64,000 nt of DNA from Bacteroidales bacterium (lineage in GTDB: Bacteria > Bacteroidota > Bacteroidia > Bacteroidales > Bacteroidaceae): positions 6,924 through 70,923 of the forward strand of contig JAUMXY010000005.1 in NCBI GenBank assembly GCA_030528885.1. The letters run 5' to 3'. Below, piece by piece: positions 4,944 to 26,344 of this stretch. The translations under genes and the position numbers were made by a program. The notes beneath the pieces are model-generated. The model was given only the letters and a program-made list of their open reading frames with translations. It did not search any database and was not told the DNA's origin. The first letter of the stretch is position 1; the number at the start of each line of letters is the position of its first letter.

Positions 4944-5055
4944 TAGTTTTTTTAAATTTTAATTATTAATTTTCCTCCTACTCTATAAGCTTTTCGGATT
5001 CCGCTTTTTTCTTAAATTCAAACTGTCAACTGTCAACTCTCAACTTTACGAAAAA

Positions 5056-7830: not shown

Positions 7831-7866
7831 TGGCTTTTCTTTTTTCTCGCTCCATAACATATACAA

Positions 7867-8427: not shown

Positions 8428-8428
8428 A

Positions 8429-9550: not shown

Positions 9551-9587
9551 TAATGTAACATAATCTAAGTTCTTAAATAAGAGTTTT

Positions 9588-9944: not shown

Positions 9945-10148
9945 AATTTTTGTTCTATTTAATCATTTTCCTACTCGTATCGTTTTTCGGTTCCACGCCT
10001 TTTTGCCTGTATGGTCAGCAGTCTATACTATTATTTAATCCATTCTATTTAGTCACTCACTGCTATTCTATCTATTTTCATTTCCTGTTTCAATATGGTT
10101 CGGATAATATGCACAGCAGCAACAGTGACAAGGATGGAGGCTGTCTTC

Positions 10149-10682: not shown

Positions 10683-10932
10683 ATTTAAATTGTTTGACTG
10701 GGTATTTCCTTTTTCCAACTTTATCGTATCTGATGATTTTACCATTAGGTAATAGTATCTCTTTTAGAACAATTTCTTTTATCAATCCACGTTTTCTTAT
10801 CTCTTTAAGATACCTCAGATTATTCCTTCGCCTCTGTCCCCCTCTTACTGGAGGAGGATCTATCGGAGGTATATATGGAACAGCACATACAATATTATAC
10901 TTATTTACCGAAGTCATCACTTTTCTTTCCAT
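10660..10932 (-). CDS. small basic hypothetical protein
   Basis: 90-aa ORF, Lys/Arg-rich, with a 23-nt overlap onto the downstream ORF. No recognisable family. Confidence 0.3.
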   Translation of the reverse strand: MERKVMTSVNKYNIVCAVPYIPPIDPPPVRGGQRRRNNLRYLKEIRKRGLIKEIVLKEILLPNGKIIRYDKVGKRKYPVKQFKYGKRKGG

Positions 10933-11033
10933 CTTGTAATATTTACATTTTATTATTTCCTTTATGAAATTCGATGCAAATATACAATATATATTATATA
11001 AACAAAAAAAAAAAAACGATATTTTTCAATTTA

Positions 11034-11066
11034 TTTGCATAATTTACTTATTAATCATTAATTTTG
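11034..11066 (+). promoter_or_regulatory. Bacteroidetes-type promoter (-33 TTTG / -7 TAATTTTG) for the SPT-like gene
   Basis: TTTG at 11034-11037 and TAATTTTG (TAnnTTTG consensus) at 11059-11066, 32 nt upstream of the ATG at 11098. Confidence 0.5.
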
Positions 11067-11097
11067 CAGCATTTAATTAAACTAATTATATACAATT

Positions 11098-12336
11098 ATG
11101 ATTAAAGAAAATAAATTTCTATCATTGAAAGATTATGAATTCTCAATGGAAGTGGACGCCGCAACCAGAGCAGAGGCATTCCAAGACTACATCCACCAGA
11201 TGGAACAGTTTGAAACAAAACCCTATTGGGTCATGGCAACAAGTGGCGTCGGGGCAAAAATGAAACTTGATGGCTGTGATGATACCATTTCCGCATACAT
11301 CTCCAATGACTACCTTGGGATGTCCCAACGTCAGGAAACCATCGAAGCGGGAATTGAAGCCCTCCGCAAGTACGGCACAGGAGCATGTGCTGCCCAAGTC
11401 ATTGGTGGCTATCTTGACATCCACAAAAAGCTTGAAGGGGACATAGCCGATTTTGTGGGGCAAGAGGATGCCATCCTCTTCTCATCGGGTTTTGGCGCCA
11501 ACACGGGGTTGCTCAATGCCATCTTGGGAAAGAATGACATCGCCTATGTGGATTCGTACATCCACACCAGTGCAACCAGCGGACTACGGGGCACCAACAT
11601 CAAACACATCGGGCACAATGACCTTGAATATCTTGACATGATACTGGGCAAGGAAGAGGGGGCATACAAGACACGCCTGGTCATCATCGATGGTGTTTAC
11701 TCTCAGAATGGCGACTTGTCTAAACTACCGGAATACATTTCTGTGTGCAAGAAGCATCACTGTCTGTTGATGATGGACGATGCGCATGGCATTGGTGTAA
11801 TGGGGAAGAACGGGCGAGGAACAGCAGAACATTTCGATTGTCTGGGGAAGGTGGATATTATCACTGGAACATTCAGTAAGTCCTTCGGGTGTGTCGGGGG
11901 CTTTGTGGCGGCATCCTCCAAGATGATAGAATACCTGAGGTTCTATGCAGACAGCAACGTTTTTTCCGCTGCCATCACACCGCAGGTGACGGGCTCCATC
12001 CTGAAAGCCCTGGAACTGATTAAGACAAGGCCTGAAATCAGAAAGAAGCTTTGGGACAATGTGAATTATCTACGGAACAGATTGCAAAGTGCTGGCTTTG
12101 ACATAGGGCAATCCGAGTCTCCAATCTTCCCCGTTATGGTCAGAGACAATGAAAAGGTATATAGAATCGCTGACATGTTGCAGAAAAAGCGTATCTTTGC
12201 AAGCGGAATCGTTTACCCTGCCGTCAGGACAAAGGAGGCGAGGATCAGAATCAGCCTGCTCGCTTCACATGATACAGACCAGCTTGAACAGCTTGCTGTT
12301 GCACTGGAGGAGATAAGGGATGTGATTCCATTCTAA
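11098..12336 (+). CDS. PLP-dependent alpha-oxoamine synthase (serine palmitoyltransferase / KBL / BioF-like)
   Basis: 412 aa with DDAHG and the PLP-lysine motif GTFSKSFG. Class-II aminotransferase architecture. Confidence 0.85.
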   Translation: MIKENKFLSLKDYEFSMEVDAATRAEAFQDYIHQMEQFETKPYWVMATSGVGAKMKLDGCDDTISAYISNDYLGMSQRQETIEAGIEALRKYGTGACAAQVIGGYLDIHKKLEGDIADFVGQEDAILFSSGFGANTGLLNAILGKNDIAYVDSYIHTSATSGLRGTNIKHIGHNDLEYLDMILGKEEGAYKTRLVIIDGVYSQNGDLSKLPEYISVCKKHHCLLMMDDAHGIGVMGKNGRGTAEHFDCLGKVDIITGTFSKSFGCVGGFVAASSKMIEYLRFYADSNVFSAAITPQVTGSILKALELIKTRPEIRKKLWDNVNYLRNRLQSAGFDIGQSESPIFPVMVRDNEKVYRIADMLQKKRIFASGIVYPAVRTKEARIRISLLASHDTDQLEQLAVALEEIRDVIPF

Positions 12337-12365
12337 GAGCTTGCACCAACAACCATAATTAGAAC

Positions 12366-13070
12366 ATGAGTACGGAAAAGAAAACACGCTACAGGCGTAC
12401 AAAGGCAGACATCACGGAAGACATCAGGAAAGCCGCCGTTGACCAAGTGATGAAACGTGGCTTTTCGGCATCATTGGTGACGGAAATCATCAAGAAGGCA
12501 AAAATAGAGCCTCCTGTCTTTTACCATAGATACAAAAACATTGACGAATTCTACAGCGAGTTTGTCAAGGGGTGCGACTATTGGTTTTCGGATATCGCGG
12601 ACAAAGCCATGAAGGGGAGCGACAATCCCAAAGAACAGTTCCTCGCCCTCATGGAGGGATTGCAGGAAGCCCTGAAGGAAAAGTCGGTGATGCACGAGCT
12701 GTTACGTTGGGAAATTGCTGAAGGGAATGACACAACCAAGAGGACTGCCACACTCCGAGAAATGTTCACCCTGCCTCTGGCGGACAAATACAATGCACTG
12801 TTTGCAGACACGGGCATCGACTTTGTGGCACTTGCCTCACTCTTGATTGGAGGGCTCTATTATCTGCATCTCCATAGAGAACGTTCCACATTCTGCAACA
12901 TTGACATGGAGAAGGAGGAGGGGACCCAACGCATCGAAAAGGCAATAAAGACCTTCACCAACATCATCTTCTCCTTTCTCGAACGCAGGGACACCAAACA
13001 AGACGTGGCAGAAAGGATGAGAGCCAAGGGTATCGACGAGCAAACCATCAAGGAGTGCCTGTTGATATGA
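12366..13070 (+). CDS. TetR/AcrR-family transcriptional regulator
   Basis: 234 aa with an N-terminal TetR HTH (IRKAAVDQVMKRGFSASLVTEIIKKAKIEPPVFYHRYKN). Confidence 0.8.
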   Translation: MSTEKKTRYRRTKADITEDIRKAAVDQVMKRGFSASLVTEIIKKAKIEPPVFYHRYKNIDEFYSEFVKGCDYWFSDIADKAMKGSDNPKEQFLALMEGLQEALKEKSVMHELLRWEIAEGNDTTKRTATLREMFTLPLADKYNALFADTGIDFVALASLLIGGLYYLHLHRERSTFCNIDMEKEEGTQRIEKAIKTFTNIIFSFLERRDTKQDVAERMRAKGIDEQTIKECLLI

Positions 13071-13072
13071 TT
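12772..13072 (+). repeat. direct repeat, left copy (functional 3' end of the TetR gene)
   Basis: Aligns by eye with 23629..23927. I count about 28 differences over ~300 nt, including one 1-nt indel. Confidence 0.85.
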
Positions 13073-13449
13073 CATGGCTTCATATTACGTTTTATACATG
13101 TAAAACTGAAATCTCTATATGTCTTACTAAGGGAAAAACGCAAATCATTTATTATAGCAAAAAGCCATATCTGTTTTCACGGCTCCGGGCACAGCTCCGG
13201 TCAATACAATGGCAATGACAAATAGTTGTGAAAACACTTTCTCGCTTTTAAAGACAATTTCGTGATTCACTCTTAGCTGAAAAACAAGTAGCTATGATTC
13301 ACTTTGAATCGTAAAGAAGTTCCCTCAAATGTATGATCTGATTATTATCTGATAGAGAATTAAAAATCGATACTTAATAACAAAGATGAAGGAAGTAAGA
13401 GTTGACTATTCCCATGAGCATGATGTGAGAATAAAATCAAATTTGAAAT

Positions 13450-16212
13450 ATGGAGAATTTAAGTAAAGCGATAAAAGCTCTTTTCGTAAAAATGAGCGGA
13501 GATGAGATTCTAAAACATGCAGGATTCTTACCTCTCGAGAAGACAGATCACATAGAAAATGACAATCAGAGACTTGATTCAAACATACCAGAGTCTATTG
13601 TCATAAACAAACTATTACAAGTTGATTTTGAAAGCACTATCGACCAACTCAATATTGTTTATCAAATAATACAAGACAAGTGGGTCATCAAAGACAAATC
13701 AAATTTAGACTTACAATTTCGTAATAGTGATTCGGTCTTTAATGCGCTTCTTCATTTTGCATCCAAATGTCTCACTGTAAAAGATGGAGAGCCTCTTTGT
13801 CAATATCGCACATTATTACGTTGGCATTTAATTGCAGGACAAGTTGGTGAAGATCTTCTAACGACAGCATTTATTGCATCGCATGATATAAAACGAAAGA
13901 AAAGGAGAAGTACATTCGATTGGAGTGCTTATTTGGGACATGACTGCAAAGAACTAAATTATATTCTTGAGAAACCGATGGCAGAATTGCACATGCACCT
14001 GAAAGGTTCTTCATTCAATTTTGACTTGAGTTGGTCATGTCTGATGAACCATATTGGCATTATGCAAAGCCGTTTTGAATTAGAACATCCTCTTCACCCA
14101 TATATTGATCCCGATAAGACTCTTTATGAAAAAGTGAGGAGAGCTGCAGCTATTAGATACTATTTGGCTGTTGCTGTTGGTTGTGTTAAAGATGACCTGT
14201 CATTAGCACAATTATATTCTTTTTTGAACGACAAAGTGGATGAAAAAAATCTTCCGAAAAAAAACGAAGAAAGAGAATTTAGGAAAAATGAATGGAGAAT
14301 TAAAAACGAAGAAAGAAAATTTAGGAAAAAGGAATTGGGAATTGAAAAAGAAGTAGATATCCTTGAAAAAATAGACAAAAGTCGCGAGAAGACGAAGAGA
14401 TTTATCAAAGAAAAGTTTGAACAGGCTAAAATCAATCAACATTTTAGTGATCAATTAACGGATAATGATATTATTGATTACATCCCCGTGCTGCATTATG
14501 AAAGTGAGCCTATTGAAAACAAGGTCTTAGCTCCAGAAAGAGCTTTGATGTATTCTGTTTTCTCTGCTATTTATGGGGGTAATGAGGAGTCATCTAATAT
14601 TGCGACATTATTCTATGCATATCTGGCATATAAAACATATTTCAGAAATGCGATTATACAGTTGAACGAGAGGGTTGGTTTTGCCAATTTTGCCAGTTAT
14701 GAGGAAAGAAAGACCGACTATATCCTTGAGGATTATTATCATTTACTGTATAAAGCAGCCATTGAAGGTTTCTTGGAAAAAGGAACAGACAGATATATTG
14801 AAGCAAGAGTTGTTCCCAAAGATACAGAAGAAGGCATAGTTAGATCACTTTTTGACTATTGTAAAGAAATCGATGAAAAATACAAGAAGAAGTACTCGTT
14901 TATCTTTCATTTCATCAAACAAAGAGATGAACCTAAAGGAGAAGGCTTCTATCGACATTATGATTTACGACATGCAATAAAAAAACAGGCTTATGCCATC
15001 TATCAGTTTAGAAGTAATAGAAAAAACTGGGAAGGTGACAACAACTTGGTAGGCAAGGTCGTTGGTTTGGATGCTGCAAATTCCGAGGTGTTCTGTAGAC
15101 CAGAGGTCTATGCACAGGCTTTCAGGTTTCTAAGAGGACACGAGATAACAATTGATGAAGAGACGGAAGAATATCCTAAAGATCTTAATATTACTTATCA
15201 TGTAGGTGAGGATTATATGGATATTGCTGATGGATTGCGGTCCGTGGAAGAGGCTATGCTTTTCTTAAACTTAGGAAACGGAGACCGTCTAGGACATGCA
15301 CTTGTACTTGGTACTGATGTTAGAAGTTATTATGAAAAGCGTTATTATACCATATGCGCAAGTAAACAGGTCATATTAGACAATTTAGCATGGTTGCATC
15401 ACAAATGTATTCGTTTGACAGGTTACACACAACTATGTGGATGGCTGGACATCATGTTTTTGAAATATTTTGATGATATTTATGGGAAGCATGATGAGAA
15501 GGAGGATAATATCATTGATTTGTTTTTTACCGATGAAAAGAATAAAAATCTTTCAGACGATATCAATGACTATTATCTGTCTTGGTTGTTGAGAGGTGAT
15601 TCACCCGTCATTGGAACGGAATTGGCTAATGAAAATTTAGAAAGAATGGTCTCAACAATTGACAGGCAATGGGTATATGCGGGTATGAATCATCAAGTTT
15701 GTGCAGAGGTCGCTCTAAAAAATGAACGTGCCCGAGATTTATTCGATGCTTACCATTCTTACAAATATGCAAAAAAAGGATATTTAGGAGATACACTGAC
15801 TATACCACCTATGTATAGAGACGAATGGTATATGCTTTTGGAGAAAATACAGCAGCAACTTCTCGAAAAGGTCGAGAAAAGACACATCGCTATTGAATGC
15901 AATCCTTCATCGAATTTTAAGATTGGTGAAATCGAACGATATGACGAGCATCCTATTATTAAATTCTTTAACTATGGTCTTAAGACTCCATACCCTCGGC
16001 ATGATATTGCAGTTTCTATCAACACGGATGATCAGGGTGTTTTTGCCACCTCTTTAGAACGTGAATATTCGCTCATGGCTTTGGCGATAGAAAGAAATCG
16101 TCATAAGGAATATGAGAATTCTCCAAGAGCTATTTGGGAATGGCTTGATAGAGTAAGGGAACTTTCTATGGAACAAAGGTTTAACAAAATAAATCAACAG
16201 AAAAATGGATAA
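13450..16212 (+). CDS. large adenosine/AMP-deaminase-fold metallo-hydrolase (RdrB/Cad1-like catalytic core, novel N-terminus and insertions)
   Basis: 920 aa. Catalytic motifs: ELHMHLKGS (His181/His183), TYHVGEDY (His584, Glu587), GDRLGHAL (His616), IECNPSSN, SINTDDQGVF (Asp860/Asp861). The gene is visibly AT-rich. It carries a K/E-rich insertion containing a 14-aa tandem repeat. Confidence 0.8.
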   Translation: MENLSKAIKALFVKMSGDEILKHAGFLPLEKTDHIENDNQRLDSNIPESIVINKLLQVDFESTIDQLNIVYQIIQDKWVIKDKSNLDLQFRNSDSVFNALLHFASKCLTVKDGEPLCQYRTLLRWHLIAGQVGEDLLTTAFIASHDIKRKKRRSTFDWSAYLGHDCKELNYILEKPMAELHMHLKGSSFNFDLSWSCLMNHIGIMQSRFELEHPLHPYIDPDKTLYEKVRRAAAIRYYLAVAVGCVKDDLSLAQLYSFLNDKVDEKNLPKKNEEREFRKNEWRIKNEERKFRKKELGIEKEVDILEKIDKSREKTKRFIKEKFEQAKINQHFSDQLTDNDIIDYIPVLHYESEPIENKVLAPERALMYSVFSAIYGGNEESSNIATLFYAYLAYKTYFRNAIIQLNERVGFANFASYEERKTDYILEDYYHLLYKAAIEGFLEKGTDRYIEARVVPKDTEEGIVRSLFDYCKEIDEKYKKKYSFIFHFIKQRDEPKGEGFYRHYDLRHAIKKQAYAIYQFRSNRKNWEGDNNLVGKVVGLDAANSEVFCRPEVYAQAFRFLRGHEITIDEETEEYPKDLNITYHVGEDYMDIADGLRSVEEAMLFLNLGNGDRLGHALVLGTDVRSYYEKRYYTICASKQVILDNLAWLHHKCIRLTGYTQLCGWLDIMFLKYFDDIYGKHDEKEDNIIDLFFTDEKNKNLSDDINDYYLSWLLRGDSPVIGTELANENLERMVSTIDRQWVYAGMNHQVCAEVALKNERARDLFDAYHSYKYAKKGYLGDTLTIPPMYRDEWYMLLEKIQQQLLEKVEKRHIAIECNPSSNFKIGEIERYDEHPIIKFFNYGLKTPYPRHDIAVSINTDDQGVFATSLEREYSLMALAIERNRHKEYENSPRAIWEWLDRVRELSMEQRFNKINQQKNG

Positions 16213-16597
16213 AATATTTTTAAAAGAGTGTTTCTTGCAGAAGACAAATCAGTATGAAGCATTAGACGTATTATCTAAAGATGAAAATGATTTGAGACTC
16301 GGTTCGTTTCTATTTCTTTGTTTTGACGAGAAAAAAGATAAGGAGAAAAAACTAGTTTTTGCAAAAACAAAAGTTAAAGATGGAAATATAGAGGGTGAAG
16401 AAAAAACAATAGGCATCCTATCTGAAGAAGATGCGAAAGAAATTAAGCCGTATCTTGAAGTGGGAAGAATGGACCTATATGAATGTCGAATTAGTAAATT
16501 TGACAAGGATGGAGATGAAAACAAAAGGTTTAGCATTGCCATTTTCATAGTATCAAAGGACTACGTCAATCGACAACAAGGAAAGGCCAGACGCTAA
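16205..16597 (+). CDS. small partner protein, possibly HIRAN-like
   Basis: 130 aa. The start overlaps the deaminase stop by 8 nt (ATGGATAA). The C-terminal half, TIGILSEEDAKEIKPYLEVGRMDLYECRISKF...RFSIAIFIV, resembles the HIRAN pattern (vGyl....a..l.plld.g.....), but the NpyD signature is absent. Confidence 0.45.
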   Translation: MDKIFLKECFLQKTNQYEALDVLSKDENDLRLGSFLFLCFDEKKDKEKKLVFAKTKVKDGNIEGEEKTIGILSEEDAKEIKPYLEVGRMDLYECRISKFDKDGDENKRFSIAIFIVSKDYVNRQQGKARR

Positions 16598-16621
16598 TCC
16601 TCAACATAATGGTGAGGGAGC

Positions 16622-18838
16622 TTAATCTATCAAAGCTTTAAGGTCTTCCAATGAAAGATGCTCGTTTGCAGCATTAAACTGCTCCGTTGTCTGACGTTTA
16701 CGGTTCTGTAGAAGGAGTATTTTCTCCTCGACAGTGTCTTTACAAACAAGGCGTAGCGCTAAAACATTCTTCTTCTGACCGATGCGATGGGAACGTCCCA
16801 TTGCCTGGTCTTCGACTGCGGGATTCCACCAGTCATCTAAAAGGATGACACGATCGGCTGCTGTCAGGTTGAGACCTACGCCCCCGGCCTTAAGACTTAT
16901 TAAAAAGACGGTTATTGATGAATCTGACTGAAACCGTTCTACAGGTGTCTTTCTGTCACGGGTGTCACCATAAAGTGTGACAAATCGGATACCTGCTTCC
17001 TGAAGTTTAGATTCCATCTGATGGAGAGCTGTTACAAACTGAGAGAACACCAATACCTGATGGCCTTCTGAACGGAATGCGTCAATATAATCAATAGCAA
17101 CAGGAAATTTTGATGGAATGCAGGCCTGACGTAACCGTAGAAGTCCTTCTAATGCAATACTACTGAGACGACCACTCAAACCTGTTGCAAAAGCTTGAAG
17201 GATAGCAGTGTGGATGTTTTGATAGTTCTTCCGTTCTTGATCTGTCAATTCAATAAAGATAATTTTTTCTATCCGTTCAGGTAAATCCGAAAGAACCACT
17301 TGCTTCTCCCTGCGTAGAATAAATGGCTTCAGCAGTTTACTGGTTATACTTATATAAGTTTCAGGCTGGGTCTGAACACCTAATCTGTGGAGGCGTTGGT
17401 ACAAACTTTTCAGTGGTGGCATCAGTATCATGAAATGAGACCATAGTTCTTCTATAGAATTTTCAATGGGGGTGCCAGTAAGTATGATTTTATGCTTGCA
17501 GTCAAGTTTGCTTATTGCCTGGTATTTTTTTGTCTGTCTATTTTTTACAATCTGGGCTTCGTCAATGATAATTGTATCGTAATGATGATTTATATAGTTT
17601 TCAAGATGGATACGTAGCATGTCATAGCTAACAAGTGTGAGCTGAGGCATCAATTGTGGAGCAAAACGGAGGATTTCATTCTGCCAATTATATATTAAAG
17701 AGGTTGGAGCAATTATAAGATGTTGGACTTGGACATCCAGACAACAGAGGTGGGCAATGACTTGAAGTGTCTTGCCAAGTCCCATTTCATCAGCCAGTAG
17801 ACAACCATGATGGTTCTTACGTTGCTGTTGGAGCCAAAAAACGCCATCTTCTTGATAATTTCGGAGGGTTGCAAGGATTTTTTTATTAATTGTATCTTTA
17901 ATAAATTGTCGTTCCGATGACGAAAGAGGAACGTTTTCCTGATATAGCTGAAGTACATCGGTAGTGCCCCCTAATAGTTTGATAGTTGTTTTATCATCGC
18001 TTTTCTCTGCATCTTTACGTTGGAAGATTGTAATATGACCATCACTTTCATGATAATTGCGACTGTTAAGATAGCCGTCAAGCAACTGCTGGGCAAACTC
18101 TGAAGAGGATATGTCCTCTGTTGAAAACCAAATAATACCCGAAGGTTCACGATGAGCATAAGCTTTTGACAACTTCTGTTCTTGGTTGGGTACGTAAAGA
18201 GTCCACCCATTGTTTACGAATTCTTGAAGTTGTTGGGTATCTGGTTCATCCAAATTCAAGGTTGCAGTGGTTGCATCATAAGAATCTCCAAGTTTTGACA
18301 ATAAAGAAGACTCCGCGTCGTAATCTCTTTGGAAAAGCTTGTTGTCTGAAGTAACAAATGGGAGTGAAGAAAAAGTGGGATAAAAGGAGCTAAGTGCATC
18401 AGCATAGCGCAATCTTACCTGAAGGTTGTGATGCCAAGAATTGATATTACTGATATATAATTCTCCTCCGATGAGTCGTCCAATCTTAATTTTGTCAGTT
18501 TGATTGTTTGAAGGTAGTTTAATTTGCCCTTTTTTTATGCTGCCTTTGGGAGCAGATTCTACAAAATTATATGGATGACATATGATGACATGCTGAACAA
18601 GCGGATTTTCTAAAAGACGGTGAGGAATACGAAATGGCTGAGTCGATAGTCCTGCGTGATTAAGTAAGGAAATAAGTTCATTGGACGTAGAAATCCCTGA
18701 TTTCTGAATGTCACTGAGTGTTACTTTGCGCTGAAAAGGGGCAATAGTTTTGCTATTCCCTTCCAGGCATACTTCTACACGTATAGCCGGAATCGGTTTG
18801 GCATATTGTTCGGAAATGCAAAGCAGGCGGTAGGACAT
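16622..18838 (-). CDS. SNF2-family ATPase/translocase with uncharacterised ~330-aa N-terminal region
   Basis: 738 aa. Motifs: LADEMGLGKT (I), IIIDEAQIVKN (II), LTGTPIENS (III), VLVFSQF, GGVGLNLTAADRVILLDDWWNPAVEDQAMGRSHRIGQ (V/VI). Starts 4 nt after the rSAM stop. Confidence 0.9.
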   Translation of the reverse strand: MSYRLLCISEQYAKPIPAIRVEVCLEGNSKTIAPFQRKVTLSDIQKSGISTSNELISLLNHAGLSTQPFRIPHRLLENPLVQHVIICHPYNFVESAPKGSIKKGQIKLPSNNQTDKIKIGRLIGGELYISNINSWHHNLQVRLRYADALSSFYPTFSSLPFVTSDNKLFQRDYDAESSLLSKLGDSYDATTATLNLDEPDTQQLQEFVNNGWTLYVPNQEQKLSKAYAHREPSGIIWFSTEDISSSEFAQQLLDGYLNSRNYHESDGHITIFQRKDAEKSDDKTTIKLLGGTTDVLQLYQENVPLSSSERQFIKDTINKKILATLRNYQEDGVFWLQQQRKNHHGCLLADEMGLGKTLQVIAHLCCLDVQVQHLIIAPTSLIYNWQNEILRFAPQLMPQLTLVSYDMLRIHLENYINHHYDTIIIDEAQIVKNRQTKKYQAISKLDCKHKIILTGTPIENSIEELWSHFMILMPPLKSLYQRLHRLGVQTQPETYISITSKLLKPFILRREKQVVLSDLPERIEKIIFIELTDQERKNYQNIHTAILQAFATGLSGRLSSIALEGLLRLRQACIPSKFPVAIDYIDAFRSEGHQVLVFSQFVTALHQMESKLQEAGIRFVTLYGDTRDRKTPVERFQSDSSITVFLISLKAGGVGLNLTAADRVILLDDWWNPAVEDQAMGRSHRIGQKKNVLALRLVCKDTVEEKILLLQNRKRQTTEQFNAANEHLSLEDLKALID

Positions 18839-18842
18839 AGGC

Positions 18843-20177
18843 TTAAAACTGATAATAATAGAGATAACTGTCTATCATCTTGCGCTCTAATTGCGAAATG
18901 AATTCCTGTGAGCATTTTATCTGTAGCATCGGACCTTGATATCCAATCAATTTGCCATTGAAATTACAATCTTCTATTCGACAACCTCCACAGCAAATAT
19001 ATCGCAGGTGACAGGCTTGACATGGATGGAGATTGTCAACAGAGGTAATGTTATGAAGGAGTTTGCCCTGCTCTATGAAAGGTCTTATTGACTTCCCTTT
19101 TATATTACCATAACTTTCTACTTCTGATAGCCGATTACAATAGTACACCTCTCCATCAGCTCCGATAGAAATACCTCCATATCCACAATTTCGAGTTATA
19201 CTGTTAGGCTCATGTCCCTCTATAAAGTTCGAATATTGAGCATTAGGATTGACTGCACGTTCTATCTCCATCACTCTATTATAAAAAGAACGATTTTCTT
19301 CCTCCGTATAGTTTGTATTGCGTCCTTGTAATATCTTCTTACTAAGTTTAAAAAATACGGGATATTTGCACTGTTCCTTAATAACCTCTACCATCTGATG
19401 GTATTTTGGAGCAGCATCCTGCTGAAGGTTTTTAAAGGTAAAAGTTGTAGCTACGGAAGTCCTAATTCCTGCATTGGCAAAACGAATGACGTTGGCTACT
19501 ATTTTATCAAAGTGTCCTGCTCCTCGAACTTTAGCATTTGATTGCTCATCGAAACCGTCAATGCTAATTTGAATCTCACTAATGTATGGAGATAGCTTAT
19601 TAATTGATTCTTCTGTCCAAAGGATACCATTAGAAAGTACGGTTGTAGTTAGCCCTTGTTGATGGCTATGGATAAGAATGGTTTCAAAATCACGGTTCAT
19701 TAAGGGTTCCCCTCCGGTAAAGGTCACATTTACCCCCCCCTGGTGGCGGAAGTCCGTCAATATGCGTAGCCATTCTTCTTTGGTAAGCTCATTTGCCAAT
19801 GGTTTGCCAGAGCGCATAAAACAATGGTCACAACTGAGATTACAGGCATTTGTAAGATAACAATTAATCTGTTGGGTTACATCATTCGGTATTGGAGATG
19901 GTGTTGCATTAGTGTTGCCAAACTCCCGCGCAGTAATAGCTGCGAGAAGTCGTTGGAATTCATTTTGCTTGTCAATATCTGTAATTAGCGGGAAGACATC
20001 TCCAATGGTTTTTCCTGTAAGCAGACCCTCCAAAATTATTTTTTGAAAATCGGTTATAACTAACCAGTTAGCTGTAGACACGGCTACTACCAACCATCCC
20101 TCCTTGCAACTTCTGAAAATCACATCTTCAGGAAAAAAGAATCTGTCTGTGCTATTGAGCGTTCCGCTATGTTTCAT
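18843..20177 (-). CDS. radical SAM/SPASM peptide maturase with N-terminal PqqD-like RRE
   Basis: 444 aa. CNLSCDHCF (CxxxCxxC) and the C-terminal CQACHLRYICCGGC SPASM cluster. The N-terminal ~90 aa (EDVIFRSCKEGWLVVAVSTANWLVITDFQKIILEGLLTGKTIGDV) fits a PqqD/RRE pattern. Confidence 0.85.
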   Translation of the reverse strand: MKHSGTLNSTDRFFFPEDVIFRSCKEGWLVVAVSTANWLVITDFQKIILEGLLTGKTIGDVFPLITDIDKQNEFQRLLAAITAREFGNTNATPSPIPNDVTQQINCYLTNACNLSCDHCFMRSGKPLANELTKEEWLRILTDFRHQGGVNVTFTGGEPLMNRDFETILIHSHQQGLTTTVLSNGILWTEESINKLSPYISEIQISIDGFDEQSNAKVRGAGHFDKIVANVIRFANAGIRTSVATTFTFKNLQQDAAPKYHQMVEVIKEQCKYPVFFKLSKKILQGRNTNYTEEENRSFYNRVMEIERAVNPNAQYSNFIEGHEPNSITRNCGYGGISIGADGEVYYCNRLSEVESYGNIKGKSIRPFIEQGKLLHNITSVDNLHPCQACHLRYICCGGCRIEDCNFNGKLIGYQGPMLQIKCSQEFISQLERKMIDSYLYYYQF

Positions 20178-20190
20178 ATCTTAATTCTTA

Positions 20191-20225
20191 AAAATTGTGT
20201 TCCATGGTCTTGGACCGTGGAACAC
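20191..20225 (-). terminator. hairpin + T-run between precursor ORF and rSAM gene (attenuator / partial terminator)
   Basis: Arms 20197-20209 and 20213-20225 pair at 12 of 13 positions around a 3-nt loop. On the sense (minus) strand the hairpin is followed by AATTTTTAAG, 19 nt before the rSAM ATG. Confidence 0.5.
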
Positions 20226-20277
20226 AACCCAATTGGGTAACTATACCGTGATATGAACTTAATCCTTGATCAGGGGA

Positions 20278-20388
20278 TTAGTTCTTGTTCACATCGCAGT
20301 TCTTAAAACAGTACATAGCACCTATGCGCTCTGTCTTTCCTGCTTCTTTTGTCTCCCAATTGAACGAAATTGTGAAAATCTCTTTCAT
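20278..20388 (-). CDS. candidate RiPP precursor peptide (36 aa, below the ORF-track cutoff)
   Basis: My own translation gives MKEIFTISFNWETKEAGKTERIGAMYCFKNCDVNKN. It lies 38 nt downstream of the M42 stop and immediately upstream of the RRE-rSAM gene. The C-terminal segment YCFKNCDVNKN carries 2 Cys plus Asp/Asn. Confidence 0.45.
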   Translation of the reverse strand: MKEIFTISFNWETKEAGKTERIGAMYCFKNCDVNKN

Positions 20389-20426
20389 TTCGAAAACTTT
20401 AATTTTTTTTTAATTAATAATGTTAC

Positions 20427-21482
20427 TTAACTCAATTCCTGCAAAAACTCTGTTAAAAGAGCTATTGCATTATCGGCATCTTCTAATGAAACCATCTCAT
20501 TTGGAGTGTGCATATATCGGCAAGGTATGCTAATCAGCCCAGTCTTAATACCTTTTCCAGCCACTTGAATCATTCGGGCATCGGTACCTGTTGGACTTGC
20601 AATTGCTTCTACTTGATAAGGGATTTTTATCGTCTCAGCTATATTTGTGAATTTCTGATTAAGACCCTTGTTCATATTAGGTCCCATCGGAATGACGACA
20701 CCTTTACCGAGCCGAATGTCACCATCCTTTGCTGGAGACATGGTGGGGTAGTCAGTGGCATGAGTAACATCAATTGCAACACCTATTTCTGGAAGAATAG
20801 CTGCTGACACCATCTGTGCACCTCTAGCTCCCAGTTCCTCTTGAACAGTGGCGACCAAGTAGATATCACAATCTGTTGATATTGTCTGCAAATTGTTTGC
20901 CAAACCTATAAGTACTGCCAAACCTATCTTGTCATCAAGCGATTTTGATAGAACAAAAGTGTCAGTCAAGATGGTAGGCATTGTTGCATACGTTGCCACA
21001 GACCCAACTTGAACCTTGGACAACGCATCTTCTTTATCTTTGGCGGCAATGTCAATCCACAAGTCTTCTGGGCTAAGATTCTTACCACAATCCGGTTCGC
21101 CTTGCAAGTGAATAGGTTTTCGTCCGATAATGCCAGTAACGAGTCCTTGTTTTCCTTGTATATAAATGCGTTGACCTGGTAGTAAGTTTGTATCGATACC
21201 ACCAATTTGATTAAAATACAAGAATCCCCTGTCGTCAATGTAACTAATCATGAAACCCACTTCATCAGCATGAGCCATAAACATTATCTTAGGGCCATTA
21301 CCTTTCTTATGGGCGATACAATTACCATTAACATCGCAATTAACCTCGTCGACATACGGCATAACCGTTTTGGCAAAGAACTCTATTAACTGCTCCTCGC
21401 TTCCTGACGGACTTGCCATCAGCAAACTCTTATGTAATATATCCTTCAGCCAAACATCCATAGAGTTCAAATTTGGATACAA
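20427..21482 (-). CDS. M42-family aminopeptidase (FrvX/CelM-like)
   Basis: 351 aa with MAHADEVGFMI and DDKIGLAVL plus metal-binding His/Asp/Glu blocks typical of M42. The true start may be MDVWLKDIL at 21461. Confidence 0.8.
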   Translation of the reverse strand: MYPNLNSMDVWLKDILHKSLLMASPSGSEEQLIEFFAKTVMPYVDEVNCDVNGNCIAHKKGNGPKIMFMAHADEVGFMISYIDDRGFLYFNQIGGIDTNLLPGQRIYIQGKQGLVTGIIGRKPIHLQGEPDCGKNLSPEDLWIDIAAKDKEDALSKVQVGSVATYATMPTILTDTFVLSKSLDDKIGLAVLIGLANNLQTISTDCDIYLVATVQEELGARGAQMVSAAILPEIGVAIDVTHATDYPTMSPAKDGDIRLGKGVVIPMGPNMNKGLNQKFTNIAETIKIPYQVEAIASPTGTDARMIQVAGKGIKTGLISIPCRYMHTPNEMVSLEDADNAIALLTEFLQELS

Positions 21483-21746
21483 AGTTACGAAATAATTTTA
21501 TTTCTCAAACAAAAACTTTACAAAATAGTTACTTTAAGTTTCTATTATACGAATATAGTCAGCTTGCTCGATTTAAGAACATAAAAACTGAGGTATTTAG
21601 ATTCTGTTAGAAAATGAATCGTATTCTATGTTAAATTAGAGTACATACACAAACCACCTTGCCCTTTCTCATTCTGACCATTACAGGTTGACCCACTGGA
21701 ATCAACAATAATTCGCAACGTTCTGACAATATTCGAAGCCCCCCTC

Positions 21747-22307
21747 TTACGTTTTTTTATGATAATCCCCTCTTAGTTCTTGCAAATAGGTGGCTTCTTC
21801 TGGGGAATCGGCCCTATCTGTTGGAACCCGTCCCGTGTACCCCACAAAGTGAGCCATCATTTTCTCAACATGTGGATGATCCAACTGACCTTCATTGATT
21901 AAATCATCTAGCTCATCAACATCAAGAGAACGTAGTTGTTGGAAGTCAACAAGAAGTAATGGGGCATCTATAACTGGGTTGGGATCAAAGAAAAAATATC
22001 GTCCCACATTTGAATTATGAATAAAATTGGTCAAATAATTCACAAATGATTCCCAAGCCTTTTTTGTCAGTCCCCCCTCTTCATTCGCTGATTCTACTTT
22101 TCCCTTGTATTCTTTCGTAGACATCAAAGTTTCCTTAGCCGGAACAAGGGCGGCAACAATTAAGAAACTTAATTTATCATGCTCGAAATCACAAGCGTTT
22201 GATAAAACAATACTCAACACCGGATTTTCCTCACCTCTTCCCCAATCAACCCCACTGACAATACTGCCTTGAGTTATGTTTTCCCGTGCCCCAACAACCC
22301 ACTGCAT
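21747..22307 (-). CDS. hypothetical protein (186 aa), third gene of a 3-gene operon
   Basis: Starts 2 nt after the upstream stop. The N-terminal GSIVSGVDW...VLSIVLSNACDF...LIVAALVP is only vaguely MazF/PemK-like. No firm family. Confidence 0.4.
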   Translation of the reverse strand: MQWVVGARENITQGSIVSGVDWGRGEENPVLSIVLSNACDFEHDKLSFLIVAALVPAKETLMSTKEYKGKVESANEEGGLTKKAWESFVNYLTNFIHNSNVGRYFFFDPNPVIDAPLLLVDFQQLRSLDVDELDDLINEGQLDHPHVEKMMAHFVGYTGRVPTDRADSPEEATYLQELRGDYHKKT

Positions 22308-22308
22308 A

Positions 22309-22623
22309 TCAATAATCCATTTCTATAATGTCACCGACACTCTTATTGCTGTATGCTTTCTTAAACCATTCCGACTTGGCCATCTGGGCGTAACGCTTAC
22401 GGAAATTTTTCTTTTGGGGACTCACATACCTGACCTCTTGTACATAAGTCGTTGAATAATCATAGGTCTGCACTGTGACCACACTCACCATAGCCTGCTC
22501 ATCACGAGCAAGGGCTGGAGTCATGGTCATTGACAAAGCGCCAGCCAATGCTGCCATCTTAAAAAAAGTATTCTGGCTGCTGCTGGTCATTGTATTTTGT
22601 TCCTTATTATCGCTCATTCTCAA
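22309..22623 (-). CDS. small secreted protein (signal peptide ...ALSMTMTPALA)
   Basis: 104-aa ORF; the likely start MTSSSQ at 22590 gives 93 aa. Overlapped or abutted by both neighbours. Confidence 0.4.
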   Translation of the reverse strand: MRMSDNKEQNTMTSSSQNTFFKMAALAGALSMTMTPALARDEQAMVSVVTVQTYDYSTTYVQEVRYVSPQKKNFRKRYAQMAKSEWFKKAYSNKSVGDIIEMDY

Positions 22624-23242
22624 TCAGTCTTTTGATAATTCTTTCTTCTATTGTTTCGATTGAACTTTCTATTAACGATTTAGCCTCTTCTCCTATCGGC
22701 ATTCCACTTAAAAATTGGTTATGATGATGATTGATATTGGCAAAAATTCCATTTCGTATTCCACGACGTGGCTCAATTTCCACATTTGCAACTTGGGTCT
22801 CATTTATTCCAAGTCTCAAATTCAGTTTGTTGCACATCTGAAAGGAAGACGCATCTGATAAAGAGGGGTTAATAAAATGATTCCATAACCAAACTTCCGA
22901 ACTTTCGTTTATATCCGTCCACTGATATTCACTGTTAATACCAAAAGAAGAAAATCTGTTCCCATGGATAAACTTGTCAATTTCTGGCTGTAAAGCCTCC
23001 ATATATTCCTGCAAACCATTTCTATCTTTCGCTTTTATAACAAGTCTTGTAGGACTTAACACCATCATGGGAAAAGGTTTGTTTTCTATCGCTACAACAT
23101 ACCCATCTGGAGTAAATCCATTAAACGTATCATAAGGCAGACCAAACAAATCTTTCGCAAATCTATTATCAAAGTTTGGTAATACAGCCAAAGGCTTCTC
23201 CCAAACTCCCACAAAGGAAATGCTAAAACTGGTTTTCTCCAT
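22607..23242 (-). CDS. hypothetical protein (211 aa), first gene of a 3-gene operon
   Basis: Clean ORF with no recognisable motifs. Confidence 0.4.
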   Translation of the reverse strand: MEKTSFSISFVGVWEKPLAVLPNFDNRFAKDLFGLPYDTFNGFTPDGYVVAIENKPFPMMVLSPTRLVIKAKDRNGLQEYMEALQPEIDKFIHGNRFSSFGINSEYQWTDINESSEVWLWNHFINPSLSDASSFQMCNKLNLRLGINETQVANVEIEPRRGIRNGIFANINHHHNQFLSGMPIGEEAKSLIESSIETIEERIIKRLIENER

Positions 23243-23628
23243 TATTTACAATAATCTCTAAATTTCGTGCAAAAATAGTTCCTTTTTTTTATTCGAGAAA
23301 ATTTTTTGAGAAGGAATTAAGTATTTTTGATTTAAAATCATGTTTTTTTGTATTTCAGAATTGTTTTTACCTGTTTACGAGAAAACTGGGATTGTTTATA
23401 TGCAAAAATCATCAAATATGTAGAAAAATATCTCCATGGATAGGAATTCTGAACGAAGAACTGGGTAAGGTATGATAACTTATCGTGTCATCAGGGTTAA
23501 GGGAAAACGTGGGCTATGTGTAATATTAAACAAAATTGAGTGACATCGTGTAATGTTAAAGGTTGAGAGAAGCTGACACAGTGTGGAGATGAAATAAAAC
23601 AATTTAACACCTTGTGACCAACAGACAC

Positions 23629-23927
23629 ATGCCTCTGGCGGACAAATATAATGCACTGTTTGCAGACACGGGCATCGACTTTATGGCATTTGCCTCACTC
23701 TTGATTGGAGGGCTCTATTATCTTCATCTCCATAGAGAACGTCCACATTCTGCAACATCGACATGGAGAAGGAGGAAGGAACCCAACGCATTGATAGGGC
23801 AATAAAGACCTTCACCAACATCATCTTCTCCTTGCTCGAACACGGGGGCGCCAAACAGGATGTGGCAGAAAGGATGAGAACAAAAGGTGTTGACGAGCAA
23901 ACCATCAAGGTGTGCTTACTAATATGA
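23629..23927 (+). pseudogene. direct repeat, right copy: displaced or decayed 3' fragment of a TetR gene
   Basis: Encodes ...PLADKYNALFADTGIDF(M/V)A(F/L)ASLLIGGLYYLHLHRER. A 1-nt deletion follows, after which the shifted frame still reads MEKEEGTQRIDRAIKTFTNIIFSLLE...DEQTIKVCLLI. No 5' part of the gene is present. Confidence 0.8.
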
Positions 23928-23980
23928 TTAGAGCATTCAGTACTGCCCCAATCATATCTCCGTGCTATTTCAACATGCCT

Positions 23981-24466
23981 TTACGCGTTCAAAAAGAGTT
24001 GTCTGTTCAAAAAATTGTGAACAAATCGTATTTTCTGAACAAAAAAAAATGGAAGTATAGTTATTGCAATATCACCAACAAAACAAGACTCTCCTATAGC
24101 CTGTACTTTATTAGGAATCTTTACTTCTTTCAAACTCTTGCAACCGTTAAAAGCATAGCTTCCCAACGATGTAACATCTTCACCTATTGTCAATGTCTCC
24201 AGTGATGTACAACCTTGGAATGCACAATCACCTATTTGACCATTATTCGCAACAGAAAACAAAGAGCTCTGATAGGGGTAAACCTTCATGTCCTTCTTAT
24301 CCCACATATCCCCAAAACTATATTGGTCATTGGCTACATAGTTAATTCTTCCTGCCAGATACTCGTAACCTTCTGGTGGAGTATTTGTCAACCAAATAGT
24401 TTTTTCTGGAATGCACAGATTTACGCCTATTTTAAGTACACCAGCTCCAATTGTCATGGAAGTCAA
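23981..24466 (-). pseudogene. BspA-type leucine-rich-repeat protein fragment
   Basis: Has DCAFQGCTSLETLTIGEDVTSLGSYAFNGCKSLKEVKIPNKVQAIGESCF. The upstream in-frame sequence hits a stop, the C-terminal tail is degenerate, and there is no signal peptide. Confidence 0.5.
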
Positions 24467-24847
24467 GCTGGAGCAGTATGTGACTTTCAGAATATTCCGT
24501 TAGGGCCTGGCGACCAGGACTCTTTGGACAATATTGTAGTTAAGGTATTTATTAAAGGTATGGTTTCCTTTGAAGCTGTAAAAAAAGACATAGACATTAA
24601 CAAGTACTTCTTTAAAGATAGAAGTGAATGTATAGATGTTATTTATTCTTTTGATAAATATGATAAGAAGATAAAGTCAATTGAGTTCGACAGACACGAT
24701 ATCAATGCCAGGTTGGTTTTCTTAGAGTCAGATATCAACGAGGAAGTTCCTAAAGAACTTGTCGTGGAGAATATATCTCTACCTCTGAAGAAATACGAAA
24801 TGTTTACCCGGAAAGGAAGAAAGTAACGCTAAACCTGAGAAGAAAAA

Positions 24848-25324
24848 ATGAGGATTGCTTCGGTATTCATATTCTCGTTGATGATTCTGTCGTCTTGTTC
24901 CCATAAGGACGAGGCGATAGAACTATCACGGGATTTCTTTGCTTCATTATCCGACTCCACCTATGGAAAGACCAATGACTTCTATCCCGATTATGACTCT
25001 TTGGGCATTGAAGCAAAGTCAGACATTGTGGACATCGAGGCATCAGATGTTACCGAAAAGAACGACACTGCCACCGTCCGTTGCTATAACAACTATACCA
25101 ATAGTGAGGGAACCTTCATGCAGGATAGCGTTACCCTGTTCATTACAAGGAACGAGGATAAGCAGTACTACATCTATGATTCGAAGGGACTCATTGTTAT
25201 TGACAAGGAACTGGCGTGGTTCGGAAAGGTTACTGGTGCCTTTGGCAAGAAACAGACCAATGACCAGGCATTAGCAAAACGTATCGAGCAAGTCAGGAGC
25301 ATGATGTGGGGACAAATACATTGA
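24848..25324 (+). CDS. lipoprotein, possibly the 5' part of a disrupted gene
   Basis: 158 aa with lipobox MILSSC. It is followed by frame-shifted coding-like sequence. Confidence 0.45.
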   Translation: MRIASVFIFSLMILSSCSHKDEAIELSRDFFASLSDSTYGKTNDFYPDYDSLGIEAKSDIVDIEASDVTEKNDTATVRCYNNYTNSEGTFMQDSVTLFITRNEDKQYYIYDSKGLIVIDKELAWFGKVTGAFGKKQTNDQALAKRIEQVRSMMWGQIH

Positions 25325-25693
25325 AGTCCGTGCGGAACTGACTACCAAGGTGAAGATTGCCAACTGGTCATAGGAAACAAGCTATAGCGGTGATGCACAT
25401 GGAGAGGGAAGGGTTGTCAACATCTGGACTATTCCATATCGGGTGTGAAATACCATGTGAACTACTATGACCGCAAGGGCGACTTTATGGCAGAGGATAA
25501 TGGAAGCATCAGCAAGACATTATATCCAGGCGAGAAATACAACTTCACCTTCTGGAGTTCCAATGCTAAATATCCGAATACTGCAAGTCTCAGACTTGAT
25601 TTCTCGGACAATATGGTTTTGAAGATTATTAAGGAGCAGACCTATACAGGCAAGGAGTTCCAAGAATACTTGAAACGCCAAAAGTCCAAATAA
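25325..25693 (+). pseudogene. frame-disrupted continuation (stops and frameshifts) ending in an 82-aa ORF
   Basis: Reading EVRAELTTKVKIANWS* then ETSYSGDAHGEGRVVN.., followed by the GTG-initiated ORF at 25445..25693. Coding-like sequence is interrupted. Confidence 0.3.
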
Positions 25694-26344
25694 TCAGAAA
25701 GCCAAGTCGTTCAAGCTCGAGTTCTTCACTGAGCGAACATAATCAATGAGGATGGTAGGGTCAAAAGCCTTGCCATCCTTTTTTGTTGTAAGATGCAGAT
25801 GTTCACCAGTGGATGCTCCTGTATTGCCTGTTAATCCCAATGGCTCTCCAGCTTGAAGGTAATCATTGGTCTTTACGTATTGTTCTGACAGATGGCAATA
25901 GCTGACCGTGTAGTTAGCAGTCTGTACTGTCACGTATTTACCTGAACGGCTGTCATATCCTACCCTAAGCACCTTGCCTGGCAGCATCGACAGAACATCC
26001 TCATGTCGAGCATGAAGGTCGATGCCGTTGTGCATGATATACTTATGATATACAGGGTGCTTCCTCATTCCGAACTTTGAGTTTACTTGTATCTTCTTTA
26101 GAGGGAAGGACACACTGAGGTACGTCCTCAGTCTCTCTTCTTTCCCTTCTATCCTATCGGGAATCTCTGTAGATGCTGTATCTGACGGCAGAACACTATC
26201 CTTCGGAGCAACTGTTTGTTCTGAAGGATTTTCTATTGTCTTGATTGATGGGCGACTTGCAACATGACCGATGGTATTGAACTGTGCGAAACTTGCAATC
26301 GGAACAAATGCCGATGTGAGTATTACGAGTATTGATTTTTTCAT
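25694..26344 (-). CDS. M23-family peptidase (secreted)
   Basis: 216 aa with a signal peptide, HNGIDLHA and GNTGASTGEHLHL motifs. Confidence 0.85.
   Translation of the reverse strand: MKKSILVILTSAFVPIASFAQFNTIGHVASRPSIKTIENPSEQTVAPKDSVLPSDTASTEIPDRIEGKEERLRTYLSVSFPLKKIQVNSKFGMRKHPVYHKYIMHNGIDLHARHEDVLSMLPGKVLRVGYDSRSGKYVTVQTANYTVSYCHLSEQYVKTNDYLQAGEPLGLTGNTGASTGEHLHLTTKKDGKAFDPTILIDYVRSVKNSSLNDLAF

Follow-up and report, generated by a model that had tools for sequence, protein, structure and literature searches.

We describe a cassette of six genes in which a short peptide, a radical S-adenosylmethionine (rSAM) enzyme that probably modifies it and an SNF2-family ATPase are encoded side by side, next to an aminopeptidase and an adenosine deaminase of the RADAR type. 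The cassette lies in a 64,000-nucleotide (nt) stretch of DNA from a Bacteroidales bacterium (GenBank assembly GCA_030528885.1, contig JAUMXY010000005.1, positions 6,924 to 70,923 of the forward strand), referred to here as the window. We found that the rSAM and SNF2 genes are paired in all close homologous loci and in five of five distant lineages, and that phages carry copies of the peptide gene. We put the chances at about even that this conserved multi-gene system serves in defence against phages or other mobile genetic elements.

An earlier note, made from the letters of the window, had described a minus-strand operon at 16622-21482. Open reading frame (ORF) calls and reading of the sequence placed its four genes, its hairpin, the 38-nt spacer between the M42 and peptide genes and the 4-nt spacer (GCCT) between the rSAM and SNF2 genes exactly where that note had them. 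The content of the span was right and its extent too short: the unit also takes in two convergent plus-strand genes, for the deaminase and a 130-amino-acid (aa) protein. The features of the cassette are as follows.

21480..21487, minus strand: Bacteroidetes-type -7 box TAACTTTG, candidate operon promoter, 18 nt 5' of the M42 ATG
20427..21461, minus strand: M42 (TET-type) aminopeptidase, probably 344 aa (Pfam Peptidase_M42)
20278..20388, minus strand: precursor peptide MKEIFTISFNWETKEAGKTERIGAMYCFKNCDVNKN, 36 aa (conserved leader motif and core)
about 20187..20230, minus strand: stem-loop and U-run between the peptide and rSAM genes (fold energy compared with shuffled sequences)
18843..20177, minus strand: predicted peptide maturase with a recognition element, radical SAM and SPASM domains, 444 aa (motifs, AlphaFold2 model, Foldseek)
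16622..18838, minus strand: SNF2-family ATPase, 738 aa (Pfam SNF2-rel_dom and Helicase_C; residues 1-330 family-specific)
13450..16212, plus strand: RdrB-like (RADAR-type) adenosine deaminase, 920 aa (NCBIfam RdrB, PDB 8fnw, PADLOC RdrB)
16205..16597, plus strand: small acidic partner protein, s130, 130 aa (follows the deaminase in all type-A loci)

The peptide ORF sits 100 nt 5' of the rSAM gene, and the start of the s130 gene overlaps the deaminase stop by 8 nt.

Conserved linkage of the peptide, maturase and SNF2 genes

The order M42-peptide-rSAM-SNF2 was invariant in 13 loci from genomes and assemblies (Parabacteroides distasonis, Xylanibacter ruminicola, Segatella copri, Prevotella, Bacteroides and Bacteroidales metagenome-assembled genomes), in which the rSAM proteins are 46-64% identical. 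The same order was present in 92 metagenomic loci, found with a degenerate pattern for the peptide core. Translational coupling of the rSAM and SNF2 genes was seen in each Bacteroidales locus that we examined, consistent with the tight coupling that had been read from the window.

Pfam SNF2-rel_dom and Helicase_C cover residues ~320-738 of the SNF2 protein, and the motor motifs GLGKT, DEAQ and QAMGRSHRIGQ are intact. Residues 1-320 had no match in Pfam, NCBIfam or PADLOC. The structure predicted by AlphaFold2 (AF2) for the N-terminal 330 residues is confident (predicted local distance difference test, pLDDT, 83), and comparison of this model with the PDB and BFVD gave no match with E < 0.06 (TM ~0.1). 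A HMMER search of 1.84 billion representative proteins found the domain in 41 clusters only, always at the N terminus of proteins of 750-800 aa. The N-terminal region, already noted as uncharacterized, matched no known fold and is restricted to this family.

We selected five of the most divergent of these proteins, 22-29% identical in the N-terminal domain, and inspected their loci (L283-L292). In all five lineages the SNF2 start directly adjoins or overlaps an rSAM/SPASM gene, 5' of which lies a gene for a peptide containing MYCFK. The GC content of these loci ranges from 34% to 53%, and the enzymes are 32-40% identical. None of the distant loci has the M42 or the deaminase gene; one of the five has a divergent S9 peptidase instead. 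Because the distant loci hold only the peptide, rSAM and SNF2 genes, we conclude that this triad is the conserved core. Neighbourhood mining of homologues had been suggested as the way to check the rSAM-SNF2 pairing, and the linkage across close, metagenomic and distant loci leads us to reject chance adjacency.

The peptide in the window has the leader motif (I/V)SFxWxE and the core R·G·MYCFK·C··N·N-stop. Loci that we reached through the rSAM or SNF2 protein, where the peptide pattern was not used, all carry an ORF of 31-53 aa just 5' of the rSAM gene. The gap between the two is 70-105 nt in Bacteroidales, whereas the distant loci range from an overlap of 3 nt to a gap of 68 nt. Throughout these loci the leader has the motif (I/V/L)·F/L·x·W·x·E, and the peptide ends in R·G·MYCFK·C··N·[QKERN]·N-stop. 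The 36-aa ORF is a genuine gene, and the peptide is the most conserved element of the system. We counted 60 versions of the core at the nucleotide level, with synonymous sites saturated, a count that is circular for loci found by the peptide pattern and that we did not use as independent evidence.

The hairpin that follows the peptide gene in the window has a 17-bp stem and then a U-run (-30 kcal/mol, z = -3.4), and 0 of 200 shuffled sequences folded equally well. At this position, 10 of 10 homologous loci also have a strong hairpin, although its sequence is unrelated. It resembles an attenuator or a terminator, through which the amount of peptide relative to enzyme could be set, and its conservation by position and not by sequence fits an attenuator giving a high peptide-to-enzyme ratio.

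Several properties of the rSAM protein point to a maturase for peptides that are synthesized ribosomally and modified post-translationally (RiPPs). It matched Pfam Radical_SAM (E 5e-24) and Fer4_12. Its invariant cysteines form the C112xxxC116xxC119 motif and a set of seven in the SPASM region (C331, C347, C386xxC389x5C395x3C399 and C422). In the AF2 model (pLDDT 86) the N-terminal β3α3 has the topology of a RiPP recognition element (RRE), with predicted elements at β19-24, β27-32, β37-41, α43-53, α58-64 and α68-83, all with pLDDT above 90. The PqqD-like N-terminal domain described in the earlier note is thus supported by predicted structure, though the Pfam PqqD profile gave no match. The top Foldseek matches were CteB, SkfB, SuiB and TigE, with full-length alignment to the RRE-containing CteB, SkfB and SuiB; by sequence, the nearest solved relatives are SkfB and CteB. 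Together with the leader and core of the peptide, these features agree with the view that the M42, peptide and maturase genes make up a RiPP-like cluster.

The maturase fits none of the curated families. Its best NCBIfam match was the StsB sactipeptide maturase (residues 8-402, 137 bits with a cut-off of 625). It also matched SkfB (107, cut-off 300), SCIFF (69, cut-off 425) and PapB (66, cut-off 340), and PqqE and MftC were among the matches. Because it falls far under every curated cut-off, we regard it as a new family, and one not of the anaerobic sulfatase-maturating enzyme (anSME) type. Membership in anSME or another non-peptide rSAM family, which had been named as an outcome that would undermine the RiPP reading, was rejected: anSME ranks under the RiPP maturases in the NCBIfam and Foldseek comparisons, and the cassette has both an RRE and a precursor. 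A sister rSAM/SPASM family (full-length identity 32%) occurs in a Clostridia metagenome-assembled genome (L012:10001-12555) and on a viral contig (L120:362-1528). We rejected these proteins as cassette members and assign them to a different family, as they have neither SNF2 nor an MYCFK peptide beside them. The Clostridia locus has a second rSAM gene beside that of the sister family.

The M42 protein matched Pfam Peptidase_M42 over the whole model (E 1.8e-90). The consensus of the -7 element of Bacteroides promoters is TAnnTTTG. The location of the M42 ORF in the earlier note (20427-21482) holds, and its TTG start at 21482 probably does not: since homologues align from residue 7-17 on and the TAACTTTG box lies at 21480-21487, the ATG at 21461 is most likely the start. 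The M42 gene is 5' of the peptide gene in all Bacteroidales cassettes and missing from the distant triads. Its presence in the cluster is therefore confirmed and its place in the core is not; it is a Bacteroidales-specific addition. The protein is a candidate leader-trimming exopeptidase, and an M42 peptidase has a precedent in a RiPP cluster, ChrP of the chryseobasin cluster (PMC11002830).

The RADAR-type deaminase and the surroundings of the cassette

The 920-aa protein matched the NCBIfam RdrB model (NF041744) over positions 158-845 of 850 (E 5e-44), scoring 151 bits, well below the cut-off of 800. It also matched the PDB structure of RdrB (8fnw) in patches (E 6e-25) and the PADLOC RdrB profile, and its metal-binding and catalytic motifs (HMHLKGS, HVGED and NTDDQG) are intact. 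On these matches we classify it as a homologue of RdrB and not an equivalog.

The deaminase and the small acidic protein occur in at least three arrangements relative to the RiPP-SNF2 module: upstream on the same strand, downstream and convergent, or downstream on the same strand. We found the deaminase in 44 metagenomic cassettes, and it was missing from none that had at least 3.5 kb on both flanks. In five loci (L280, L179, L205, L263 and L210) the pair is swapped for an RdrA-like ATPase (PADLOC RdrA, E 2.5e-12) followed by a divergent RdrB-like deaminase that is 35-39% identical to the window protein. One such variant, compared in detail, has its module at L280:13583-18702 on the minus strand with an RdrA-like ATPase of 832 aa, and its rSAM, SNF2 and M42 proteins are 62-72% identical to those of the window. 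That RdrB-type enzymes recur with the cassette in modular form argues for a functional link, and the genes at 13450-16212 and 16205-16597 belong to the Bacteroidales cassette. There was no match to RdrA among the six cassette genes and the three ORFs upstream of M42 in the window.

The s130 protein had no significant match in Pfam, NCBIfam or PADLOC, and a PDB profile search found nothing, HIRAN included. A sub-threshold match to Pfam HIRAN in two of eight family members is a hint to its family: the P. distasonis member scored 19.6 bits (E 8e-4) with a threshold of 24.7, the window protein gave E 0.07, and the other six had no match. In the window, the ORFs found upstream of the deaminase encode an aminotransferase and a regulator of the TetR type. 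Those that lie upstream of M42 (21747-23242) had no family match and are not conserved with the cassette.

Judged from its genes, the window is an integrative and conjugative element (ICE). It encodes a Toprim/DUF3991 primase, two ArdC-type anti-restriction proteins, a glucosaminidase/M23 lysin and a GmrSD protein. Other cassette loci have as neighbours genes for RteC, MobC and an integrase; AbiL-like AAA_21/RloB, Nmad2 and a Gp49/HTH toxin-antitoxin pair; PDC-S56, PycC-like and AAA_15 proteins, with the PycC-like cyclase adjoining in L280; and an argonaute-associated-type nuclease (Aga_Nuclease) and a type II restriction-endonuclease-like protein. In one locus (L086:16620-18534) a patatin and SMODS (CBASS) pair starts 17 nt after the s130 gene on the same strand. 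One distant triad adjoins genes for a type IV secretion system coupling protein and HEPN/NERD proteins, and another has a divergent S9 peptidase and dynamin-like GTPases upstream. This context is typical of defence islands and of the cargo of mobile elements, which is suggestive and not proof.

Several other features of the window were recorded. A GmrSD-type (DUF262/DUF1524) restriction endonuclease at 52205-54139 (plus strand) is a second defence gene on the same ICE. The two anti-restriction-type proteins, at 36737-39244 and 41712-43208 (both plus strand), combine ArdC-N with a zincin (MPTase-PolyVal) domain, and the first also has a C-terminal MutS domain I, an unusual fusion. The stretch that holds the cassette (8000-26000) has a low GC content (36-41%) compared with the transfer and replication region of the ICE (26000-48000, 45-49%), which fits separately acquired cargo. 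At 4975-5007 (minus strand) the DUF805b motif of Rfam, a cis-regulatory RNA, scores 46 bits, which exceeds the gathering threshold; it lies just downstream of a 936-aa ricin-lectin/transglutaminase-like ORF (5056-7866) and upstream of a 123-aa ORF (4572-4943).

Phage-borne peptide copies and a possible mechanism

We scanned IMG/VR with a degenerate pattern for the core GAMYCFKxCDVN and found matches on 31 viral contigs (L088-L118), each a stand-alone ORF of 33-39 aa with the same leader motif and core. The rSAM, M42, SNF2 and deaminase genes of the cassette were absent from the flanks of all 31 peptide genes, and none of these contigs was among the matches of a viral scan for the maturase. The cassette itself was found on one IMG/VR contig only (L119, IMGVR_UViG_3300031993_005618, 18 kb). 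The rSAM and deaminase genes on that contig are 94% and 91% identical to the window proteins, and it may be an ICE fragment classed as viral.

The peptide contigs encode large terminase, DNA polymerase, primase-helicase, integrase, RtcB, HNH, dUTPase and methyltransferase proteins, and we assign them on gene content to phages of several types, at least four. One contig (L088) shares only a NinG/Rap gene with Bacteroides phage BS-TP2, a megablast search with another (L117) found nothing, and tblastn detected the peptide in none of the INPHARED phages. In metagenomes (L160-L279), the core pattern was found in 92 cassette copies, 24 orphans that lack the rSAM, M42, SNF2 and deaminase genes of the cassette (e.g., L187, L192, L223 and L254) and 4 copies that fell in neither group. 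The leaders of orphans match those of particular cassette lineages at up to 18 of 20 residues, suggesting that they were captured repeatedly or have co-evolved, and hence that the host RRE recognizes them.

The ends of the orphan peptides differ. The terminal Asn is present in all 92 cassette peptides and all five distant lineages, and it is lost in 4 of ~8 orphan lineages, which end in …QT, …FM or …VD. In the two phage lineages that keep …QN, a gene for a Cys-rich protein of ~290 aa starts 5-6 nt after the peptide stop (L107:9070-9930, minus strand; also the peptide-adjacent ORFs in L192, L248, L194 and L230); it is missing from the altered-end lineages, a comparison of small numbers in which the lineages are not independent samples. 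A weak match to Peptidase_U32 (E 0.002-0.008) is the sole clue to the family of the Cys-rich protein. An rSAM protein encoded downstream of a QT-type phage peptide was considered as a maturase and rejected, as it is weakly RlmN/Cfr-like and is no SPASM maturase.

We propose, as a possible and still doubtful reading, that the cross-linked and aminopeptidase-trimmed peptide acts within the cell as a ligand controlling immune machinery that consists of the SNF2 ATPase and, in Bacteroidales, the RADAR-type deaminase, and that phages evade it with look-alike precursors that hijack the host maturase. The hairpin attenuator after the peptide gene would cause the peptide to be transcribed in excess. 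The rSAM enzyme would bind the leader through its RRE and install one or two thioether-type cross-links from Cys27 and Cys31, by analogy with the chemistry of SkfB, CteB, PapB and the NxxC enzymes. The invariant Asn34 and Asn36 are the likely acceptors, giving nested rings as in sactipeptides. The M42 enzyme, as a processive N-terminal exopeptidase, would trim the leader until halted by the cross-linked ring. The small cyclic peptide, having no exporter, would stay in the cell, where as a ligand it would determine how active the SNF2 motor is, probably via the N-terminal domain. In Bacteroidales, SNF2 would in turn control the RdrB-like enzyme, which by homology with RADAR would convert ATP and dATP to ITP and dITP and so abort the infection. 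The phage copies may engage the host maturase to yield either a mimic that tops up an inhibitory ligand or a decoy or antagonist.

An intracellular ligand for the ATPase had been suggested before, along with the absence of transporter and immunity genes. The conserved gene set indeed holds neither, and such a ligand is still the best fit. The attenuator, and an operon that appears constitutive, speak for a ligand already in place when infection starts, as an inhibitor or a cofactor; the altered C-termini in phages favour antagonism.

Several points weigh against this proposal. The sign of control could go either way, since orphans with an intact core suit an inhibitor (antitoxin-mimic) model and those with altered ends suit a decoy model. 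The distant triads have no deaminase, so the effector there would have to be something else. The N-terminal domain of SNF2 has no nuclease or other fold that could be recognized in the PDB or BFVD, and binding of the peptide to SNF2 or the deaminase is a postulate. The absence of the maturase from phage contigs was judged from the flanks and one pattern-based scan of contigs that are partly readable, and the Cys-rich phage protein might be a maturase of its own. Finally, association with defence islands is weak evidence of function, and ICE cargo can have other roles.

We also considered that the cassette might be an addiction module of the ICE, akin to a toxin-antitoxin system, in which a labile modified peptide neutralizes a toxic SNF2 or deaminase, so that cells losing the element die, and phage defence is secondary or absent. 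The cassette does occur on ICEs and mobilizable elements, the peptide gene comes first and then the attenuator, as for an antitoxin made in excess, and an RdrB-type enzyme is potentially toxic (PMC9994260). However, numerous copies are found outside conjugation modules, in defence islands of the chromosome where CBASS, AbiL and further defence genes adjoin them, and addiction to an ICE can hardly on its own explain peptide genes in phages. We think this unlikely, and its mechanism overlaps with the inhibitor version of our proposal.

The peptide could instead give rise to a cofactor or signal shared by phages and hosts, similar to pyrroloquinoline quinone (PQQ) or mycofactocin, or to quorum or arbitrium signals. 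A peptide, an rSAM/SPASM enzyme and a peptidase with no exporter recall PQQ and mycofactocin, PqqE and MftC appeared among the matches of the maturase, and temperate phages with integrases carry the peptide. No redox enzyme, receptor or regulator gene is conserved alongside, however; the conserved partners are a DNA motor and, in Bacteroidales, a RADAR-type deaminase, and the cassette is sporadic, borne by mobile elements and found among defence genes. This makes it very unlikely that the product is such a cofactor or signal.

The rSAM enzyme might also act on SNF2 itself, as the earlier note had offered as an alternative, or on nucleic acid in DNA or RNA modification or repair, leaving the small ORF as a scaffold or irrelevant. 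The tight translational coupling of the rSAM and SNF2 genes would suit this, as would the SNF2 helicases that accompany the DNA-modification defence systems Dpd and DISARM, to which PADLOC detects similarity. Against it, the small ORF is the most conserved gene and has a typical leader and core layout, the maturase with its predicted RRE groups with peptide-modifying SPASM enzymes and not with nucleic-acid rSAMs, and Dpd, Drm and methyltransferase partners are absent. We regard modification of SNF2 or of nucleic acid as highly improbable.

That the cassette is an exported sacti- or ranthipeptide bacteriocin cluster which happens to lie beside an unrelated SNF2 and deaminase in mobile cargo is barely credible, although its precursor, maturase and peptidase resemble those of ordinary RiPP clusters and such clusters are common ICE cargo in Bacteroidota (10.64898/2026.08.04.741601). 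The linkage data go most of the way to refuting it: the stop/start coupling of rSAM and SNF2 persists in lineages whose enzymes share only 32-40% identity, the SNF2 N-terminal domain exists in this family only, the deaminase is always present in assessable Bacteroidales cassettes despite its varying position, and the conserved set has no exporter, immunity gene, signal or double-Gly leader.

Significance and relation to known systems

Full-text searching of the literature found no published description of the peptide-rSAM-SNF2-deaminase gene set, in agreement with the earlier statement that no described system pairs a SPASM maturase with SNF2. We regard the architecture of the cassette as new. 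Its gene content, conservation and linkage and the phage copies are observations; the chemistry, the role as a ligand, the direction of control and the part in defence are inferences that draw on comparative genomics only. If our proposal is true, this would be the first RiPP-based immune regulator and the first case of viral mimicry of a RiPP precursor. RiPPs are usually seen as exported antibiotics, signals or cofactors, and one that works inside the cell, in connection with a DNA motor and a deaminase that depletes nucleotides, would be a new type of regulator in bacterial immunity and account for one of the many orphan rSAM/SPASM families. The phage copies would point to a previously unseen counter-defence, mimicry of a RiPP substrate or ligand, and they are ready reagents for testing it. 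The same RiPP-SNF2 module occurs with a deaminase and small protein or with an RdrA-like ATPase and deaminase, a natural experiment on the control of RADAR-type deaminases, and the invariant 12-residue core is a tractable target for chemistry. Mobile elements of Bacteroidales from the human gut and the rumen (Parabacteroides, Prevotella/Segatella and Xylanibacter) commonly carry the cassette, and it may shape phage-host dynamics in the gut and the outcomes of phage therapy.

RADAR consists of the AAA+ ATPase RdrA and the adenosine deaminase RdrB, which converts ATP and dATP to ITP and dITP under the control of RdrA (Gao 2020; Duncan-Lowey 2023, PMC9994260). Like RdrB, the cassette deaminase is a protein of ~900 aa, homologous over nearly the whole length and with intact catalytic motifs; it is paired with a large ATPase in a defence island, and some cassette variants have an RdrA-like ATPase. 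In contrast to RADAR, the window has no RdrA; the partners of its deaminase are the 130-aa protein, SNF2 and the RiPP module, its score is far under the RdrB cut-off, and the peptide-rSAM-SNF2 core also exists with no deaminase. We therefore rejected canonical RADAR for the window.

The PADLOC matches of the SNF2 protein (DpdE, E 2e-96; ZorD, E 2e-73; DrmD, E 7e-34) all fall within residues 318-736. The cassette shares this motor domain, and a setting in defence islands and mobile elements, with the SNF2 defence systems (DISARM DrmD, Zorya ZorD, Dpd DpdE and Hma). The likeness is limited to the motor, whereas the N-terminal domain of the cassette protein is unique, and none of the partners of DISARM (DrmABC/methyltransferase), Zorya (ZorABC) or Dpd (DpdA-K) was found among the cassette neighbours. 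Ophion, an rSAM defence system (10.1101/2025.09.30.679545), was considered and is unrelated, its partners being a PHP domain protein and a phosphoribosyltransferase.

The sacti- and ranthipeptide clusters (SkfB, CteB/SCIFF, StsB and PapB) provide the closest sequence and fold matches. They share with the cassette a short precursor with a leader and a Cys-containing core, a maturase with RRE, rSAM and seven-Cys SPASM domains, and an attenuator hairpin after the precursor gene. However, the cassette maturase is far under the curated cut-offs, there is no exporter or immunity gene, and coupling to SNF2 is obligate; the core is nearly invariant across phyla, unlike that of diversifying bacteriocins, and the product presumably stays in the cell. 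Anti-phage lanthipeptides are a precedent for RiPPs with a role in phage defence (bioRxiv 10.1101/2024.06.26.600839); they differ from the cassette in RiPP class, enzymes and host phylum, and their clusters show no coupling to a deaminase or an ATPase.

Conceptually, the nearest precedent comes from conflict systems centred on an NTPase, the VMAP and FtsH ternary systems, whose peptide-processing modules are, like the function proposed here, predictions only (Kaur et al. 2020, PMC7159879). They have the same predicted logic of an NTPase, a small peptide, an rSAM-SPASM enzyme and a metallopeptidase. Different families fill these roles: where those systems have vWA-MoxR/STAND proteins, MPTase and FxSxx-type peptides, the cassette has SNF2, M42 and an MYCFK peptide, respectively.

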